Source: Vibrio alginolyticus NBRC 15630 = ATCC 17749
Lineage (GTDB): Bacteria; Pseudomonadota; Gammaproteobacteria; Enterobacterales; Vibrionaceae
NCBI RefSeq assembly: GCF_000354175.2
Contig: NC_022359.1
Span: forward strand, 570,001-602,000
DNA: 32,000 nt
Reading direction: 5' to 3'
Positions 6,021 to 29,994 of this stretch are shown here, in pieces (position 1 is the stretch's first letter; each line of letters starts with the position of its first letter). The position numbers were made by a program, and so were the translations under genes. Below the pieces are notes generated by a model, which ran no database searches, was not told where the DNA came from, and was given only the letters and a program-made list of their open reading frames with translations.

Positions 6021-6058
6021 AGACAAAATAAAACCCCGCCTGGTTTCCCAGACGGGGC
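6021..6058 (-). terminator. Rho-independent terminator of the CsrB-like sRNA
   Basis: Minus RNA CCCCGUCUGG-GAAA-CCAGGCGGGG (10 bp including one G.U, GNRA loop) followed by UUUUAUUUUG. The G.U becomes a C.A mismatch on the + strand. Confidence 0.85.
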
Positions 6059-6317
6059 TTATTCTTTTTCGCAGCAATCCAGCTACTAATAGGTGCTCCC
6101 TGCATCTATCCTTGATTGTGGCTAAGTCCTTTAACCGAGTTCCTTGTTCATCGCCTTCCTAGCGGTGTCCATTCTTGCCTATCATCCTGACGGGCGAACT
6201 CTATCCTAGAGCTTAACTACATCCTTGCTGACAACTCATCCTAAGTTATCAAATCTTCATCCTGAAGATACCCAATCCTTTAGGCTTTTTTCCTGTTCCC
6301 GCCAACATCCTGTCGAC
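6025..6317 (-). ncRNA. CsrB-family (CsrB/CsrC/CsrD-like) CsrA-sequestering sRNA
   Basis: 16 GGA triplets in about 250 nt on the minus strand, 8 of them AGGAT at 15-21 nt spacing, some in hairpin loops. The 5' end reads GTCGACAGGATG like E. coli csrB. The 3' end is a strong terminator, and there is no ORF. Confidence 0.8.
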
Positions 6318-6477
6318 AAATTGAGTATTGATGTTTTGCTGATTTGACTCAATTAACTTTTCTAAATTATTTTTACTGATTATTTTAAGTGAATTTAAAT
6401 ATTACTTTTAAATCATATATTTAATGTTTTTTCTGGCATTGCTCTTAGAGGTGATTAATCTATTTGCTCACAACTCT

Positions 6478-23107: not shown

Positions 23108-23512
23108 TTAGGAGTTGCCATCTTTAGGGCAGAGTTCACCTTTCTTGGCGTGTCTTTCTATCATGTAATCGCCTCGGGCACTGTGCAATACAATTGCATT
23201 CCAGACTTGACCATCTTGCAACTCGAACTCAAACGCATAATGGGTGCCGCCGACCATTTTCGTTCTCACCTCATGAATTGCTTTCAATTTATCATCGGCA
23301 TTCATTTGATAAAGCACCATGTTGAGTGAGCGTCTGGCGTCAGGAGTTGCTTCAGCAAGTTGCCAATGGCCCTGCTCGTCTGTTGCGGAGCAAATAGACC
23401 GCATTTTACTTTTCATGGCGGATGACATCTGCTTGTCTACGGCCAATGCATTTGGTGAAAACAGTGGAACCGTCAAAGGAATCAAAGTTACCAGAAACCG
23501 CTTTAAGGTCAT
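23108..23512 (-). CDS. Secreted small protein with a cystatin-like sequence pattern
   Basis: 134 aa with a signal peptide (…FSPNALAVD). The core KLKAIHEVRTKMVGGTHYAFEFELQDGQVWNAIVL resembles the cystatin helix, QxVxG loop and beta-hairpin. The fold call is by eye only. Confidence 0.6.
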   Translation of the reverse strand: MTLKRFLVTLIPLTVPLFSPNALAVDKQMSSAMKSKMRSICSATDEQGHWQLAEATPDARRSLNMVLYQMNADDKLKAIHEVRTKMVGGTHYAFEFELQDGQVWNAIVLHSARGDYMIERHAKKGELCPKDGNS

Positions 23513-23588: not shown

Positions 23589-23687
23589 CTACAATATCGC
23601 AGTTCGTATCAACGAACTGATGATAAACAAGGCGACCACGCTTGCCAGCCAAATGCCAATGAACCACAAAGTGGGTTTTAGTTTCAT
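23589..23687 (-). CDS. 32-aa single-TM peptide coupled to cydB/cioB (DUF2474/CydX-like accessory subunit candidate)
   Basis: MKLKPTLWFIGIWLASVVALFIISSLIRTAIL. Its ATG overlaps the cydB TGA (TGATG). It sits where small accessory subunits of bd/CIO oxidases are encoded. Confidence 0.6.
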   Translation of the reverse strand: MKLKPTLWFIGIWLASVVALFIISSLIRTAIL

Positions 23688-24685
23688 CAGTGATATCCTT
23701 CTCCACGTTTCATCTTGCCGCGGAAAACCCAGTACGAATAAGCCGTGTAGGCTATGATCAGAGGAAGTAATACCACCGCACCGGCAAGTAAAAATGCCAA
23801 ACTCTTATCTGGCGCAGCGACGTCTTGATAAGTGAGTGCGAATGGGACCAAGTAAGGGAATGTACTGACACCGAAACCCATCGCGGACACAAGAAACAGG
23901 CCGATCGCAAGAACGTAGGCTCGGACGGCTTTGTGGTCGAGTAAGGCTTTGAATAGCTGCCAAATAAGTGCCGCTGCAATAATTGGTAAAATGAAAAACA
24001 GTAGCGAGTTTGGTAATGAGAACCAACGTTCAAATACGATATTTTGGCTCAATGGCAGCCACAAACTGGCGATGAATATACAGGCTACCATCGCTAGTCC
24101 CCATCGTCGCGCGACCACGTAATAGCGCCCCATCAGCTCTTCTGGAAGCTTGATTAATAACCAGCATGAACCGAGCAGAATATAAGCACAAACAAGCGCC
24201 AGGCCACAAAATACGCTAAATGGTGAAAGCCAATCAAACCATCCACCTGCGTATGCTCGTTCACTAACCTCTATACCTTGGAGCAGGGTTCCGAGCATAA
24301 TGCCTTGCATCAATGCCGCGGTGAGTGAACCAATGAAAAAAGCGCTATCCCATAAAAACTTTCCGCGTTGTGTTCGGAAGCGATACTCAAAAGAAACCCC
24401 GCGCAGAATTAACCCGAGCAGCATTAAAATCAGGGGAGCATAGAGTGCTGGCATAATGACCGCGTAGGCGAGGGGGAACACGGCAAAAAGCCCACCACCG
24501 CCAAGAACTAGCCAAGTTTCATTCCCATCCCAAACAGGAGCGATGCTGTTCATCATCATGTCGCGCTCTTCATCGTCATTAGCGCTGAGGAATAGGATAC
24601 CAATACCGAGATCAAAGCCATCTAACACGACATAAATCAGAACGGCGAGCCCAATCAAAGCGTACCAAATTAATGCGTAATCCAT
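23687..24685 (-). CDS. cydB: Cytochrome bd-type quinol oxidase subunit II (CIO-like)
   Basis: 332 aa with the typical N-terminus MDYALIWYALIGLAVLIYVVLDGFDLGIGIL. It starts 10 nt downstream of subunit I. Confidence 0.9.
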   Translation of the reverse strand: MDYALIWYALIGLAVLIYVVLDGFDLGIGILFLSANDDEERDMMMNSIAPVWDGNETWLVLGGGGLFAVFPLAYAVIMPALYAPLILMLLGLILRGVSFEYRFRTQRGKFLWDSAFFIGSLTAALMQGIMLGTLLQGIEVSERAYAGGWFDWLSPFSVFCGLALVCAYILLGSCWLLIKLPEELMGRYYVVARRWGLAMVACIFIASLWLPLSQNIVFERWFSLPNSLLFFILPIIAAALIWQLFKALLDHKAVRAYVLAIGLFLVSAMGFGVSTFPYLVPFALTYQDVAAPDKSLAFLLAGAVVLLPLIIAYTAYSYWVFRGKMKRGEGYH

Positions 24686-24695
24686 GAGTTAGCTC

Positions 24696-26084
24696 CTAGG
24701 TTAGATGGTTAGAATGTGTGATGGCATCGGTTTTCGTGCCATCAGGAAGTCGGCTATCTAGGCCTTCTTCATATCGAGTTGGAGACTTACGCATCAAACG
24801 TAGGAGATAGAAGAAGCCAGCTCCAAAAACCACAAAGTAAACCACGATGAACGCCGTCAGGGAGACGCTCACCGCGGCGGCATCAATAGGCGATGCCGAA
24901 TTGGCTGTGGTTAAAAGACCGTATACGGTGTAAGGCTGTCGACCGACTTCGGTAGTTATCCAGCCTGCTAAAACTGCAATGAACCCCGCTGGGGCAAACA
25001 GGACACAAATACGTTGAAGTGCCCTTGAATCAAAAAGTTTGCGACGTTTTCTTAGCCAAAGGCTCCACAAACCAATAACAAGCATGCCAAAACCAAGCGC
25101 GACCATTACTCGGAAAGACCAGAAAACGATAGAGACAGGAGGGTGTTCCTCCTCTGGAAAAGCATCTAATCCCTTCACTTCACCGTTGAGGTCATGAGTT
25201 AAGATCAAACTACCGAGTTTGGGGATTTCCAGTGCGTATTCCATGCGTTTTTCTTCATCGTTAGGGATACCGAAGAGGATCAATGGCGCGCCTTGGTGAG
25301 ACTCATAGTGCCCTTCCATCGCGGCGACTTTGGCGGGTTGATGTTCAAGGGTGTTTAAACCATGCATGTCTCCAGCAACGATTTGAATTGGTGTCACGAT
25401 GGCAGCCATCCACATTGCCATCGAGAACATAATTCTGGCAAGAGGGTTATGGTTTGCTTTTAGTAAGTGATAAGCGGCAACGCCGGCTACAACAAAGGCA
25501 GTAGTAAGGTAAGCGGCGAGCAACATATGAACGAGCCGGTAAGGGAAGGAAGGGTTGAAGACAATCGCCCACCAGTCTTCTGGGATAAACTGTCCGGCTT
25601 CGTTGATACTGTAGCCCGCTGGTGTTTGCATCCAACTATTAACCGAAAGTATCCAAAACGCAGACAAAAACGTCCCGAATGCAACAATACAAGTCGCGGC
25701 GAAGTGAAGCTTCTTACCCACCTTATCCATACCGAAAAGCATCACGCCTAAAAACCCCGCTTCGAGGAAAAACGCAGTAAAAACTTCATAACCCATTAGC
25801 GGGCCCAGGATTGGGCCTGTTTTGTCGGCAAACACGCTCCAGTTAGTACCGAATTGATAGCTCAACACGATGCCACTCACCACACCCATACCAAAACTGA
25901 TGGCAAAGATTTTGAGCCAGTACTTATAGATTTGCATGTACTGTTTGTTGCCCGTTTTTAAGTACAAGCCCTCTAATACAGCGAGATAACTTGCCAAACC
26001 AATCGTAAAAGCTGGAAAAATAATGTGGAAAGAGACAGTAAAGGCAAATTGGAATCTAGCTAGGTCAATGGCGAGTGTGTCCAT
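24696..26084 (-). CDS. cydA: Cytochrome bd-type quinol oxidase subunit I, short Q-loop (CIO-like)
   Basis: The conserved N-terminus begins at MDTLAIDLARFQFAFTVSFH (ATG 26084, AAGGGA 6 nt upstream), giving 462 aa. That is shorter than E. coli CydA and consistent with the short-Q-loop/CioA subgroup. Confidence 0.9.
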   Translation of the reverse strand: MDTLAIDLARFQFAFTVSFHIIFPAFTIGLASYLAVLEGLYLKTGNKQYMQIYKYWLKIFAISFGMGVVSGIVLSYQFGTNWSVFADKTGPILGPLMGYEVFTAFFLEAGFLGVMLFGMDKVGKKLHFAATCIVAFGTFLSAFWILSVNSWMQTPAGYSINEAGQFIPEDWWAIVFNPSFPYRLVHMLLAAYLTTAFVVAGVAAYHLLKANHNPLARIMFSMAMWMAAIVTPIQIVAGDMHGLNTLEHQPAKVAAMEGHYESHQGAPLILFGIPNDEEKRMEYALEIPKLGSLILTHDLNGEVKGLDAFPEEEHPPVSIVFWSFRVMVALGFGMLVIGLWSLWLRKRRKLFDSRALQRICVLFAPAGFIAVLAGWITTEVGRQPYTVYGLLTTANSASPIDAAAVSVSLTAFIVVYFVVFGAGFFYLLRLMRKSPTRYEEGLDSRLPDGTKTDAITHSNHLT

Positions 26085-26244
26085 GAGCGGTCCCTTTTTC
26101 GTTGGATAAAACTGTTCGCCGGATTTAAAGAGGAGACAGAAGAGTGGCGAACAAGGTGAAATACGAAGAAGGAAGACGAAGAGATTAAAAAACGATCGCT
26201 TTTTACACATGTGCGTACCATCTTTTAGATAAAGGAGGAGTGTT

Positions 26245-27489
26245 ATGAGCCTTAAACATTACTTTGAGAAAGCGACACCTAAGTTTGGTCCAGGTGGGAA
26301 GTATCACAAGTTCTACCCACTTTTCGAAGCTGTCGAAACCATTTTTTACACGCCTGGTAAGGTAAACCAGGGCATGACTCACGTTCGAGATAGCATCGAT
26401 TTAAAACGTATTATGATCATGGTGTGGTTGGCGGTCTTCCCTGCCATGTTCTGGGGTATGTACAACATAGGCCAGCAAGCGAGTGATGCCTTGTTGTATG
26501 GAATGGAACAAGCCTCAGCTCAGCAAGCGCTTGTTTCTTCATGGCAACTGAGTTGGGTATGGGGTTCGTTAGATGCGGTTTCACAAGCGGGGTGGGAAAG
26601 TAAAATGTGGCTTGGTGCTACTTACTTTCTCCCGGTTTATGCGACGGTGTTTATCGTTGGTGGTTTCTGGGAAGTTCTGTTTGCTATTGTGCGAAAGCAT
26701 GAGGTGAATGAAGGTTTTTTTGTCAGCTCTATACTCTTTGCGCTGATCCTTCCTCCGACAATTCCACTATGGCAAGCGGCTTTAGGTATCACTTTCGGTA
26801 TTGTTGTGGCGAAGGAGATTTTCGGTGGTACTGGACGAAACTTCCTAAATCCAGCTTTAGCAGGGCGAGCGTTCTTATACTTTGCCTATCCTGCCAACAT
26901 GTCCGGTGGTGCTGTGTGGGTCGCGGCTGATGGTTACTCTGGCGCTACTCCACTTAGTCAATGGTATGAAGGCGGGCAAAGTGCTTTGATAAATAATATG
27001 ACAGGACAAACAATTTCATGGGGAGATGCTTTTGTTGGTAATTTACCAGGCTCGATGGGTGAAGTCTCCACGTTGTTGATCGCACTAACAGGCTTGGTTC
27101 TCATCTTTATGAAGATTGCATCGTGGAGAATTGTTGCGGGCGTGTTGGTCGGTTTAATCGGAGCTTCACTACTATTGAATGCGATCGGTTCAGACTCTAA
27201 CCCCATGTTCTCCATGCCGTTCTACTGGCACTTCGTGATTGGTGGGGTTGCGTTTGGTACCTTCTTTATGGCGACAGACCCTGTCTCGGCAGCTTTTACC
27301 AATAACGGGAAATGGGCATACGGACTATTAATCGGTGTGATGACGATTTTTATCCGAGTGCTGAACCCGGCTTATCCAGAAGGCATCATGTTAGCGATTC
27401 TATTTGCTAACTTATTCGCGCCACTTTTCGATTACCTAGTCAAAGAAAGTAATATCAAACGCAGAATGAAAAGGGCGAGACCTTCTTAA
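26245..27489 (+). CDS. nqrB: Stand-alone full-length paralog of Na+-NQR subunit B (NqrB)
   Basis: 414 aa, collinear with V. cholerae NqrB from recall ([64 protein letters not shown]). The covalent-FMN motif DGYSGAT is kept. Strong SD AGGAGG. No nqrA/C/D/E/F genes are adjacent, and a terminator follows. Confidence 0.9.
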
Positions 27490-27541
27490 AATGAGGGTGA
27501 CCTCACTGAAAATTGATTGAAAACTGCACTATATTGAAAAG

Positions 27542-27575
27542 GTCAGAGACATAGGGTTTCTGACTTTTTATTTTT
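27542..27575 (+). terminator. Rho-independent terminator after the nqrB paralog
   Basis: GUCAGAGA-CAUAGGG-UUUCUGAC followed by UUUUUAUUUUU. Confidence 0.75.
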
Positions 27576-27593: not shown

Positions 27594-27692
27594 ATGAGAA
27601 TAAAGGATATTCTCGATAGCCGTTTGGTGCTGTCGTTCTGGTATAACCTAGACTACTGCTTGTCTCTTCTTAGTAAAATCTCTTCTCGTTGA
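27594..27692 (+). CDS. Candidate TnaC-like leader peptide (MRIKDILDSRLVLSFWYNLDYCLSLLSKISSR)
   Basis: 32 codons with GGAGG 9 nt upstream. The single Trp sits in FWYNLD, compared with KWFNID in E. coli TnaC (same W-x3-D spacing). The ORF ends 95 nt before tnaA. Confidence 0.5.
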   Translation: MRIKDILDSRLVLSFWYNLDYCLSLLSKISSR

Positions 27693-27787
27693 TTTCCTCA
27701 ATGCAATCGCATTGAAAAGCATTCTATCTATTTGTTTTTTAGTCTTACGTGAAACTGCGTAGGGCAATGCGTATAAGGAAATTAACA

Positions 27788-29188
27788 ATGAAACGTATTC
27801 CAGAACCTTTCCGTATCAAAATGGTTGAGCCAATCAAAATGACGACTTTGGCAGACCGTGAAGTCGCGTTAAAAGAAGCGGGCTATAATCCATTTCTTCT
27901 TCGTAGTGATGATGTTTATATCGATTTGCTGACTGACTCTGGCACTGGTGCCATGAGTGATAATCAGTGGGCTGGCATCATGATGGGGGATGAATCCTAT
28001 GCGGGGAGTCGAAATTACTACAACCTGTGTGATGCAGTGGAGCACTTCTTCGGTTATAAGCTCACCGTGCCTGCACACCAAGGGCGTGGTGCCGAGCAAA
28101 TTTTGTTCCCAGCTTTGATTGAGCGTATGCGTCAGGTGCGTGGTGGCGAAACGCCAGTATTTATCTCGAACTACCATTTTGATACCACAGCGGGTCACAT
28201 TGAACTCAATGGCGGTAAAGCGATTAACGTGGTAACGGAAGAAGCATTCGACACCACTACGCCTTATGATTGGAAGGGCAATTTTGATATCGATAAGCTG
28301 GTGGCAACAATTGAAGCGTACGGTTCGCATAACATTTGTGCAATTATCACCACGATTACTTGTAATAGCTCCGGTGGTCAGCCTGTGTCGATGGAAAACA
28401 TGCGCAGTGTGTACGAGATTGCAACCAAGTGCGATATTCCAGTGGTGATTGACTCGGCTCGTTACTGTGAGAACGCCTACTTTATCAAGCAGCGTGAAGC
28501 GGGTTACGAAAATAAATCGATTCTGGAAATCATCCGTGAGATGTACCAGTACGGTGATATGCTCACCATGTCAGCTAAGAAAGACCCGATGGTAAACATT
28601 GGTGGCATGTGTTGTATTCGTGATCATAAGGAGTTGTTCCAGGCGGTGCAGACACGTTGTGTACCCATGGAAGGATTTGTGACATACGGTGGTATGGCTG
28701 GGCGTGATATGGAAGCGCTCGCTCGCGGTTTGTATGAAGCGGCAGATGAAGATTTTCTTCACTACCGAATTAGCCAAGTTCAATACTTAGGTGAGCGCTT
28801 ACGTGAAGGCGGTATTCCAATTCAATACCCAACGGGTGGTCACGCAGTGTTTGTGGATGCCGCTAAGATTTTGCCACATATTCCAGCGGATCAGTTTCCT
28901 GCGCAGGTATTGTGTAATGCTTTGTACTTGGAAGCGGGTATTCGAGCAGTAGAGATAGGTTCGTTGCTGCTTGGTCGAGATCCGGAAACGGGTAAACAAA
29001 AAGCGTCAGAGCTTGAGTTGATGCGTTTGACCATTCCACGTCGTGTCTACACAAACGATCATATGGATTACATTGCGGATGCGATTATCGAACTGAAAAA
29101 TCGTGCACATGAGTTAAAAGGGCTCACTTTCGAGTACGAGCCACCAGTGCTGCGCCACTTTACTGCTCGATTTAAAGAGATCGATTAA
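27788..29188 (+). CDS. tnaA: Tryptophanase-family beta-eliminating lyase (PLP-dependent), probably tryptophanase
   Basis: Collinear with TnaA/TPL ([34 protein letters not shown]-lysine motif [26 protein letters not shown]). Start at ATG 27788 with AAGGAA upstream. Substrate (Trp versus Tyr) is not certain from sequence alone. Confidence 0.85.
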
Positions 29189-29910: not shown

Positions 29911-29994
29911 TGGTGCCGAGAGAGGGACTCGAACCCTCACACCAAAGGCACTAGCACCTCATGCTAGCGTGTCTACCAATTTCACCATCTCGGC
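29911..29994 (-). tRNA. tRNA-Leu (anticodon GAG)
   Basis: Minus strand GCCGAGATGGTGAAATTGGTAGACACGCTAGCATGAGGTGCTAGTGCCTTTGGTGTGAGGGTTCGAGTCCCTCTCTCGGCACCA. It folds as a cloverleaf with a long variable arm, anticodon loop AUGAGGU, T-loop TTCGAGT and an encoded CCA. Confidence 0.95.

Follow-up and report, generated by a model that had tools for sequence, protein, structure and literature searches.

A solitary NqrB lineage in Vibrio and Photobacterium: a candidate alternative subunit of Na+-NQR encoded beside a CIO-type bd oxidase in Vibrio alginolyticus

A 32,000-nucleotide stretch of Vibrio alginolyticus NBRC 15630 = ATCC 17749 (contig NC_022359.1, positions 570,001 to 602,000; hereafter the window), which is part of chromosome 2, carries a complete paralog of nqrB that stands alone, away from any other gene of the sodium-pumping NADH:quinone reductase, Na+-NQR. 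In marine and pathogenic bacteria this enzyme serves as the principal respiratory sodium pump, and it has been proposed as a target for antibiotics; its biochemistry was classically studied in V. alginolyticus and V. harveyi. Its subunit NqrB holds the quinone/inhibitor site, two flavins, and the proposed Na+ channel. To our knowledge, Na+-NQR has always been treated as a fixed six-subunit enzyme produced from one operon. The solitary gene and the family to which it belongs are named nqrB2 (protein NqrB2) here. The gene and its signals are as follows:

26233-26238 (+): Shine-Dalgarno sequence AGGAGG, read from the sequence, 6 nucleotides before the nqrB2 ATG
26245-27489 (+): nqrB2, solitary full-length NqrB paralog of 414 aa, stop codon included (open reading frame with ATG start, profile models, structure match, selection analysis)
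27537-27569 (+): terminator-like hairpin 3' of nqrB2, found by scanning, with a 14-pair stem followed by the T-run ATTTTTAT

The identity of the product is supported from several sides. Residues 1-411 match two equivalog hidden Markov models, NCBIfam NF003756 (672.5 bits, cut-off 414) and TIGR01937 nqrB (587.5 bits, cut-off 349.9), and the scores against the NCBIfam RnfD models are far under cut-off. Residues 1-410 align to V. cholerae NqrB in the Protein Data Bank (7xk3_B, E=6e-188), and PF03116 (residues 44-404) is the only Pfam domain; the Pfam scan found no extra fused domain, including the NqrF-like NAD-binding domain PF00175. Pfam scans of 19 open reading frames and gene calls on identical contigs revealed none of nqrA, nqrC, nqrD, nqrE, or nqrF in the window. 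The first-pass annotation of this DNA, which had described a complete 414-aa NqrB with a strong ribosome-binding site, its own terminator, and no nqr gene nearby, is thus borne out, and the FMN-attachment (flavin mononucleotide), quinone-site, and C-terminal motifs that it quoted are all present in the translation.

The gene is not peculiar to this genome but belongs to a widespread family found in at least 58 species. A scan with an NqrB2-specific protein motif, using one genome per species, returned 58 loci in Vibrio and Photobacterium, among them V. diabolicus and V. harveyi, together with three records lacking a genus name, and the gene was solitary in all of them. No match was obtained in the same scan for V. 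cholerae, V. parahaemolyticus, V. vulnificus, or Aliivibrio; these absences need caution, as V. alginolyticus was missed too though the window matches the pattern exactly, and the stretch may be masked. More than 100 assemblies named V. alginolyticus encode an identical protein; among them are complete chromosome 2 records of approx. 1.8 Mb. No nqr neighbours were present in about 65 related loci, and no nqr gene lay within 10 kb of nqrB2 in any context examined, which disposes of the concern that the window merely cuts through a split nqr operon. Hits approx. 80% identical to the window protein (V. splendidus, V. crassostreae, V. fortis, V. pelagius, and V. coralliilyticus) gave the first impression of being canonical NqrBs; this was ruled out, since they too are solitary genes without nqr neighbours, and the true canonical NqrB of V. 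cholerae is only 69% identical to the window NqrB2. In genome annotations, nqrB2 genes bear the same product name as the operon-encoded nqrB. Full-text literature searches, including those on nqrB-cioA and transcriptome topics, found no description of a solitary nqrB. NqrB2 is an undescribed, deep-branching, solitary lineage of NqrB.

A canonical operon elsewhere in the genome was found directly in Photobacterium angustum, which holds a complete nqrABCDEF-apbE-nqrM operon in addition to the solitary nqrB2; for V. alginolyticus itself, the canonical operon is taken here from the established literature. Pairwise ratios of nonsynonymous to synonymous substitution (dN/dS) among NqrB2 orthologs range from 0.013 to 0.052, the reading frame is intact in all 58 species, and NqrB2 is under strong purifying selection, in agreement with the earlier judgement that it is not a decaying pseudogene. 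The possibility that nqrB2 is such a pseudogene, or an artefact of a split-operon assembly, can be regarded as excluded by the intact frames, the low dN/dS, the more than 100 assemblies, and the distance from other nqr genes. Carriage by plasmids was also considered and rejected: none of the hits in a plasmid database was a mobile plasmid, all being chromosome 2 records or chromosomes entered under the wrong label. Among PLSDB entries of 2-5 Mb listed as "plasmids", several (Klebsiella, Proteus, Aeromonas, and Neisseria) are evidently whole chromosomes with a canonical nqr operon. One protein of 632 aa from ENA, P0001, is an over-long NqrB-like sequence whose scores against NqrB2 and against V. 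cholerae NqrB exceed those expected at full length; it sits on a metagenome contig, where the gene call is probably chimeric or duplicated, and was excluded.

Phylogenetic analysis places NqrB2 apart from the operon-encoded proteins. The trees were built by neighbour-joining on corrected distances, so that long-branch effects are possible, and operon-encoded NqrBs of Klebsiella, Proteus, Providencia, Aeromonas, and Neisseria, taken from chromosomes mislabelled as plasmids, were added. NqrB2 is monophyletic in 100 of 100 bootstraps, which answers the earlier question of whether the orphan copies form one clade. In 99 of 100 bootstraps, canonical Vibrionaceae NqrB and the five external NqrBs form a group that leaves out NqrB2. 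Canonical Vibrionaceae NqrBs are 75-77% identical to the five external NqrBs, while NqrB2 is 67% identical to the canonical Vibrionaceae proteins and 64-68% identical to the external ones. A recent duplication within the family had been suggested by an early placement of NqrB2 as sister of canonical Vibrionaceae NqrB; that placement used only distant outgroups from 50% clusters, and it was recovered in none of 100 bootstraps once the additional NqrBs were included. Since the canonical NqrBs group without NqrB2, NqrB2 is an old separate lineage or a foreign acquisition and not a recent duplicate.

Despite this depth, the residues on which the function of NqrB depends are largely retained. Residue roles were taken from studies of the V. 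cholerae structure (PMC9325719, PMC10643135), V. cholerae numbering is used, and 158 NqrB2 sequences were compared. The FMN-attachment sequence, S232-G233-A234-T235 in the window NqrB2 (its Thr is Thr236 in V. cholerae), is invariant in all of them, a motif from which flavinylation of NqrB2 is predicted. The riboflavin ligands N200, N203, and D346 are kept, with T162 replaced by Ser in 97% of NqrB2 sequences. The quinone/inhibitor pocket is likewise kept (K54, M57, I58, G141, F142, E144, V145, N156, E157, F159, and F160), as are the residues of the Na+ path and gate (D52, E274, G334, G335, F338, F342, and D397; V64 is Thr in 83% of NqrB2) and P376, the one NqrC-contact site checked. Region by region, conservation along NqrB2 equals or surpasses that of canonical NqrB.

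Of particular relevance is the cytoplasmic stretch 34-53 of NqrB, which intertwines with the C-terminus of NqrA (PMC9325719, PMC10643135). Within it, both families have Y35, T36, P37, V40, H46, R48, D49, D52, and L53 without exception, and G38 almost without exception. A partnerless protein would have no reason to keep this stretch, and its retention is the main argument that NqrB2 would still assemble into NQR. The first-pass annotation had located most of the divergence at the extreme N-terminus and had connected this to the contact with NqrA. Neither part of that argument holds: the core residues of the NqrA-binding stretch are conserved, and the most divergent region is the periplasmic loop between transmembrane helices (TMH) 1 and 2, residues 81-120.

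The differences that do exist are consistent and selected, that is, systematic rather than a sign of decay. Twenty-seven positions are fixed differently between NqrB2 and canonical NqrB. In the TMH1-2 loop, Y102 and W103, which are invariant in the canonical proteins, are lost through a fixed two-residue deletion. Near the FMN site, D223 is replaced by G and A242 by Y, and four changes (W327F, L331F, F336V, and M340T) lie on or just before helix VIII, flanking the proposed Na+ gate residues F338 and F342. The N-terminal lid differs as well: position 23, a Trp in 99% of canonical NqrBs, can be Leu, Phe, or Trp in NqrB2, and Val frequently replaces Leu26. The composition also differs: 146 of the 158 NqrB2 proteins are without any Cys, whereas 99% of canonical NqrBs have Cys148, and the mean number of His residues is 4.4 in NqrB2 vs. 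9.5 in the canonical proteins. These changes point to altered gating or coupling, altered docking of NqrC, or tolerance of thiol- or metal-reactive stress as possible properties of NqrB2.

Upstream of nqrB2, and transcribed divergently from it, lie the genes of a cytochrome bd oxidase:

23589-23687 (-): small hydrophobic open reading frame of 32 aa, DUF2474-like, overlapping the cioB stop (translation MKLKPTLWFIGIWLASVVALFIISSLIRTAIL)
23687-24685 (-): cioB, cytochrome bd subunit II, 332 aa (Pfam PF02322, 322 bits)
24696-26084 (-): cioA, cytochrome bd subunit I, short Q-loop, 462 aa from the homology-supported start (Pfam PF01654, 577 bits; 462-aa call on identical contigs)

In the alignment of CioA to subunit 1 of E. 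coli bd-II, approx. 60 residues of the E. coli chain are skipped, and CioA matches the short-Q-loop Geobacillus subunit (448 aa) in a single stretch. Because CioA lacks approx. 60 residues of the E. coli Q-loop, the enzyme is of the short-Q-loop, cyanide-insensitive oxidase (CIO) type; insensitivity of the window CioAB to cyanide is predicted from the enzyme type. The small open reading frame at the cioB stop gives a weak match to PF10617 (DUF2474) on identical contigs and in V. coralliilyticus, and may encode a small third subunit of the oxidase. The divergent pairing of nqrB2 with a CIO-type oxidase across a 160-bp control region, as originally described, was thus confirmed.

The proposal that orphan nqrB copies are syntenic with cioAB across the family stands in part. 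Of the 58 species loci, 16 have divergent cioAB genes immediately upstream of nqrB2 (some loci end at that edge), so the linkage is recurrent; it is not universal, as sister species in the same setting lack cioAB. The pair occurs in three unrelated chromosomal settings:

setting 1, Harveyi clade: between the 134-aa open reading frame (23108-23512 in the window) and tnaA
setting 2: between a SPOR-domain gene and a DUF6482 gene
setting 3: next to MsrA and short-chain dehydrogenase genes

For each setting there are sister species with the same neighbours but without cioAB, and the simplest history is an ancestral cioBA<>nqrB2 module from which cioAB was lost repeatedly. Pairwise distances of CioA and of NqrB2 correlate (r=0.92). 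No conserved partner gene of nqrB2 was found across five context types. Functional clues were also sought among the neighbours other than cioAB, which include tnaA, DUF2913, SPOR, DUF6482, MsrA, short-chain dehydrogenase, photolyase-like, and DUF2786 genes, as well as a pyridine-nucleotide-disulfide oxidoreductase read as gor from synteny; these were set aside, as they differ by lineage and look like ordinary synteny. In the published descriptions of CIO loci that were found, no locus is paired with an nqrB gene. The 134-aa open reading frame (23108-23512, -) appears to begin with a signal sequence and matches nothing in Pfam or NCBIfam, and it is kept beside nqrB2 or cioB throughout the Harveyi clade; a Q-V-V-G-G motif in its orthologs looks, by eye only, cystatin-like.

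The intergenic region contains the following elements:

26113-26153 (no strand): inverted repeat TGTTCGCC ... GGCGAACA from the repeat search, with perfect 8-nt arms at 26113-26120 and 26146-26153, 25 nt apart
26162-26188 (-): promoter-like motif of cioA from the comparison of cioA upstream regions, TTAATC (plus-strand 26183-26188), 17-nt spacer, CGTA (plus-strand TACG, 26162-26165)
26186-26205 (no strand): palindrome TAAAAAACGA/TCGCTTTTTA from the repeat search, flanked by the two divergent promoter-like motifs
26192-26217 (+): promoter-like motif of nqrB2 from the comparison of upstream regions, ACGATC (26192-26197), 16-nt spacer, CGTA (26214-26217)

CGTA is common to the 32 non-redundant regions upstream of nqrB2, which are otherwise diverged, and precedes the ATG by 26-61 nt. 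Outside the Harveyi and Photobacterium clades (21 regions), a TGnnC box lies 16 nt further upstream; the 11 regions from these clades, including that of the window, carry ACGATC-type boxes instead. The nqrB2 motif takes the form TTGnTC, N16-17, CGTA, and the regions upstream of cioA carry TTGAAC or TTGACC, N15-16, CGTA, or, in the Harveyi clade, TTAATC, N17, CGTA. Thus, nqrB2 and cioA share the same unusual promoter-like motif, TGnnC-N15-17-CGTA. In the upstream region of one canonical nqrA, no CGTA motif with an upstream box was seen close to the start. The motif resembles promoters of extracytoplasmic function (ECF) sigma factors (GAAC ... CGT); alternatively, it could be read as a sigma-70 promoter with an overlong spacer of 18-19 nt. 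A MerR-type promoter, suggested by this spacer length, was rejected, as no dyad symmetry was seen in the spacers. For the leaders of nqrB2 and cioA, Rfam at gathering thresholds gave neither a riboswitch nor any other known RNA element. The 26186-26205 palindrome is kept upstream of nqrB2 in Harveyi-clade and Photobacterium loci, also in those without cioAB. The TGTTCGCC/GGCGAACA repeat lies on the cioA side, in what would be the cioA leader or an operator, and similar TGTTC...GAACA elements occur in other cio-linked intergenic regions, e.g., TGTTCAAAATATGAACA in V. aquaticus.

In Splendidus-clade genomes, a Ser/Thr kinase, an ECF sigma factor (PF07638), and large unannotated proteins adjoin nqrB2. 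The position of this cluster varies, being upstream and divergent in some species and downstream in others; two examples are:

locus L010, 4809-9658 (-): Splendidus-clade kinase/ECF cluster
locus L011, 11728-16556 (-): Splendidus-clade kinase/ECF cluster

The sigma factor was considered as the cognate regulator of nqrB2 and rejected, since the motif in the shared intergenic region lies on the nqrB2 strand only and the window has no such cluster.

Several other features of the window deserve mention. Between the nqrB2 terminator and tnaA there is a 32-codon open reading frame, MRIKDILDSRLVLSFWYNLDYCLSLLSKISSR (27594-27692, +), with its own AGGAGG; its W-Y-N-L-D is similar to W-F-N-I-D, the core of the TnaC leader peptide in E. 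coli. For tnaA, the start supported by homology is probably the ATG at 27788 (466 aa) and not the GTG at 27749. Two RNA genes were also found with Rfam:

6023-6335 (-): small RNA of the CsrB/RsmB family (RF00018, 84 bits vs. gathering score 71, full-length)
29914-29994 (-): tRNA gene (RF00005, 54.6 bits)

Taken together, these data are best accommodated by the assumption that NqrB2 takes the place of NqrB in Na+-NQR as an alternative subunit and is produced together with the CIO-type bd oxidase when respiration is under stress, a reading to which we assign a probability only slightly above even (approx. 0.55). According to this proposal, nqrB2 would be expressed from its own promoter, and its product would receive covalent FMN from ApbE, bind riboflavin and ubiquinone, and assemble with NqrA, NqrC, NqrD, NqrE, and NqrF from the canonical operon into a hybrid Na+-NQR. 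The hybrid would differ from the standard enzyme at the helix VIII Na+ gate, in the periplasmic TMH1-2 loop, and in the flexible N-terminal lid of the quinone/inhibitor pocket, and it would also lack the conserved Cys148 and several histidines. Co-expression with CioAB might be achieved through the shared, unusual ECF-sigma-like promoter type in response to cyanide, sulfide, nitric oxide (NO), or thiol- or metal-reactive agents, which would yield a stress-tolerant chain leading from NADH through NQR(B2), ubiquinone, and CIO to O2.

A number of observations weigh against this proposal. The assembly of NqrB2 into NQR is predicted from residue conservation only, and promoter function from a sequence pattern. 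In the Splendidus clade, the ECF sigma factor encoded beside nqrB2 has no such motif upstream of its own operon. The link to the oxidase is not obligatory, as many species, V. harveyi among them, hold nqrB2 without adjoining cioAB, and the correlation of CioA and NqrB2 distances, which is compatible with co-inheritance, is equally compatible with plain vertical descent alone. The branching of NqrB2 outside the clade of operon-encoded NqrBs leaves room for other partners. Finally, the inhibitor pocket is almost unchanged, and resistance to inhibitors is not clearly indicated.

It is conceivable, though unlikely, that NqrB2 works alone or with other partners outside Na+-NQR, providing a transmembrane flavin electron path to or from the quinone pool, or a gated cation channel, that serves the CIO branch. 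The gene is always solitary and shows the linkage to cioAB, its product falls outside every canonical NqrB sampled, and NqrB/RnfD-like modules do function outside NQR and RNF in other bacteria (PMC8238504). However, NqrB2 conserves the NqrA-intertwining core (34-53) and the NqrC-contact site to the same degree as canonical NqrB, the 67% full-length identity to canonical NqrB implies the same packing constraints, and neither a fused NAD-binding domain, as in NQR/RNF-like systems, nor a partner gene conserved across the five context types accompanies NqrB2. A stricter version, which we regard as quite unlikely, holds that NqrB2 does not join Na+-NQR at all and is a self-sufficient membrane flavoprotein from an ancient NqrB lineage of which a single gene has survived; its periplasmic covalent FMN and inner riboflavin would carry electrons across the membrane, to ubiquinone or away from it, or the protein would be a cation channel gated by redox state, and in either role it would be a partner dedicated to the CIO branch. 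The isoform swap is favoured over the stand-alone hypothesis because the NqrA-binding core and the checked NqrC-contact site are kept; neither hypothesis is proven.

Marine competitors producing NQR inhibitors (korormicin and quinolones of the HQNO [2-heptyl-4-hydroxyquinoline N-oxide] or aurachin type) offer a further explanation, which overlaps with the isoform-swap model: NqrB2 could be a drug-insensitive copy of the target. Both inhibitor types, as well as ubiquinone, bind NqrB under its N-terminal lid (PMC9325719, PMC10643135), and it is in this lid that Trp23, which lines the korormicin-tail cleft, varies in NqrB2 and that Leu26 is often Val; moreover, Cys148, one helical turn from V145 and E144, is Ala in NqrB2. 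As the main explanation, however, this was rejected, and it is retained as a minor and improbable rival, since the pocket residues defined in those two studies are conserved except for W23 and L26. The decisive binding residues (E157, E144, G141, F142, V145, F160, K54, M57, and I58) are unchanged, position 33 is Ile or Leu and not the Phe linked to HQNO tolerance in P. aeruginosa, and pairing with an oxidase suggests a respiratory stress broader than a drug specific to NQR. Still more doubtful is the view that NqrB2 does the same work as NqrB and persists as a redundant copy for dosage or backup. All its catalytic residues are indeed the same as those of NqrB, but the deep lineage, the 27 fixed differences, the two-residue deletion, and the distinct Cys/His composition, maintained across two genera, are difficult to reconcile with mere duplication of function, as is an upstream motif unlike the region upstream of nqrA. 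In addition, simple redundancy is rarely kept at a dN/dS of approx. 0.03 over such depth.

The presence of a second NqrB in both classic NQR organisms, V. alginolyticus and V. harveyi, has implications that go beyond the window. If NqrB2 does swap into the enzyme, at least two NQR forms would exist, differing beside the ion gate and in thiol and His content, and what is purified from wild-type cells as NQR could be a mixture. An isoform switch could then confer resistance to respiratory poisons or to inhibitors aimed at NqrB. The fixed natural substitutions around F338 and F342 would also constitute a ready-made probe of the gating mechanism. If true, this would be the first case of isosubunit swapping in the NQR enzyme family, parallel to the orphan cbb3 subunits of Pseudomonas.

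Comparison with known systems helps to place NqrB2. It is closest to canonical NqrB (V. cholerae 7xk3 chain B and the operon-encoded proteins of V. alginolyticus and V. harveyi), with which it shares its length, its architecture by alignment, and 67-69% identity, together with the FMN motif, the riboflavin ligands, the quinone/inhibitor pocket, the Na+ path and gate, the NqrA-binding core, and the NqrC contact. It differs in its 27 fixed substitutions and two-residue TMH1-2 deletion and in being Cys-free and His-poor; moreover, canonical NqrB is encoded in the operon, whereas NqrB2 never is, being a lone gene of a separate deep clade with a different upstream motif. More distant are the NQR/RNF-like flavinylated systems, in which an NqrB/RnfD-like membrane domain is fused to an NqrF-like NAD-binding domain (PMC8238504). 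Like NqrB2, these comprise a membrane flavoprotein of the NqrB/RnfD family outside a full NQR or RNF operon; however, NqrB2 has neither the fused PF00175 nor a flavinylation gene cluster and is far closer to true NqrB. With regard to the neighbouring oxidase, CioAB-type bd oxidases with a short Q-loop give tolerance to cyanide, sulfide, NO, and metals (PMC11837568, PMC10968556), and the cioAB of the window resembles them in having CydA and CydB domains, a short Q-loop, and a small third open reading frame. The nearest precedent is the orphan CcoN4 (ccoN4Q4) of P. aeruginosa, which forms hybrid cbb3 oxidases and is induced by cyanide (PMC5697931, PMC10790758). In both cases, a paralog of a core membrane subunit is encoded off the main operon, and the tie of CcoN4 to a respiratory poison is paralleled by the position of nqrB2 beside a CIO-type oxidase. 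The defining arrangement of an orphan isosubunit, i.e., a core-subunit paralog apart from the operon in a genome that also holds the complete operon, is found in P. angustum. CcoN4 belongs to a terminal oxidase and is controlled by the GntR-type regulator MpaR, whereas NqrB2 would belong to an NADH:quinone reductase; hybrid formation and induction, demonstrated for CcoN4, are predicted for NqrB2.

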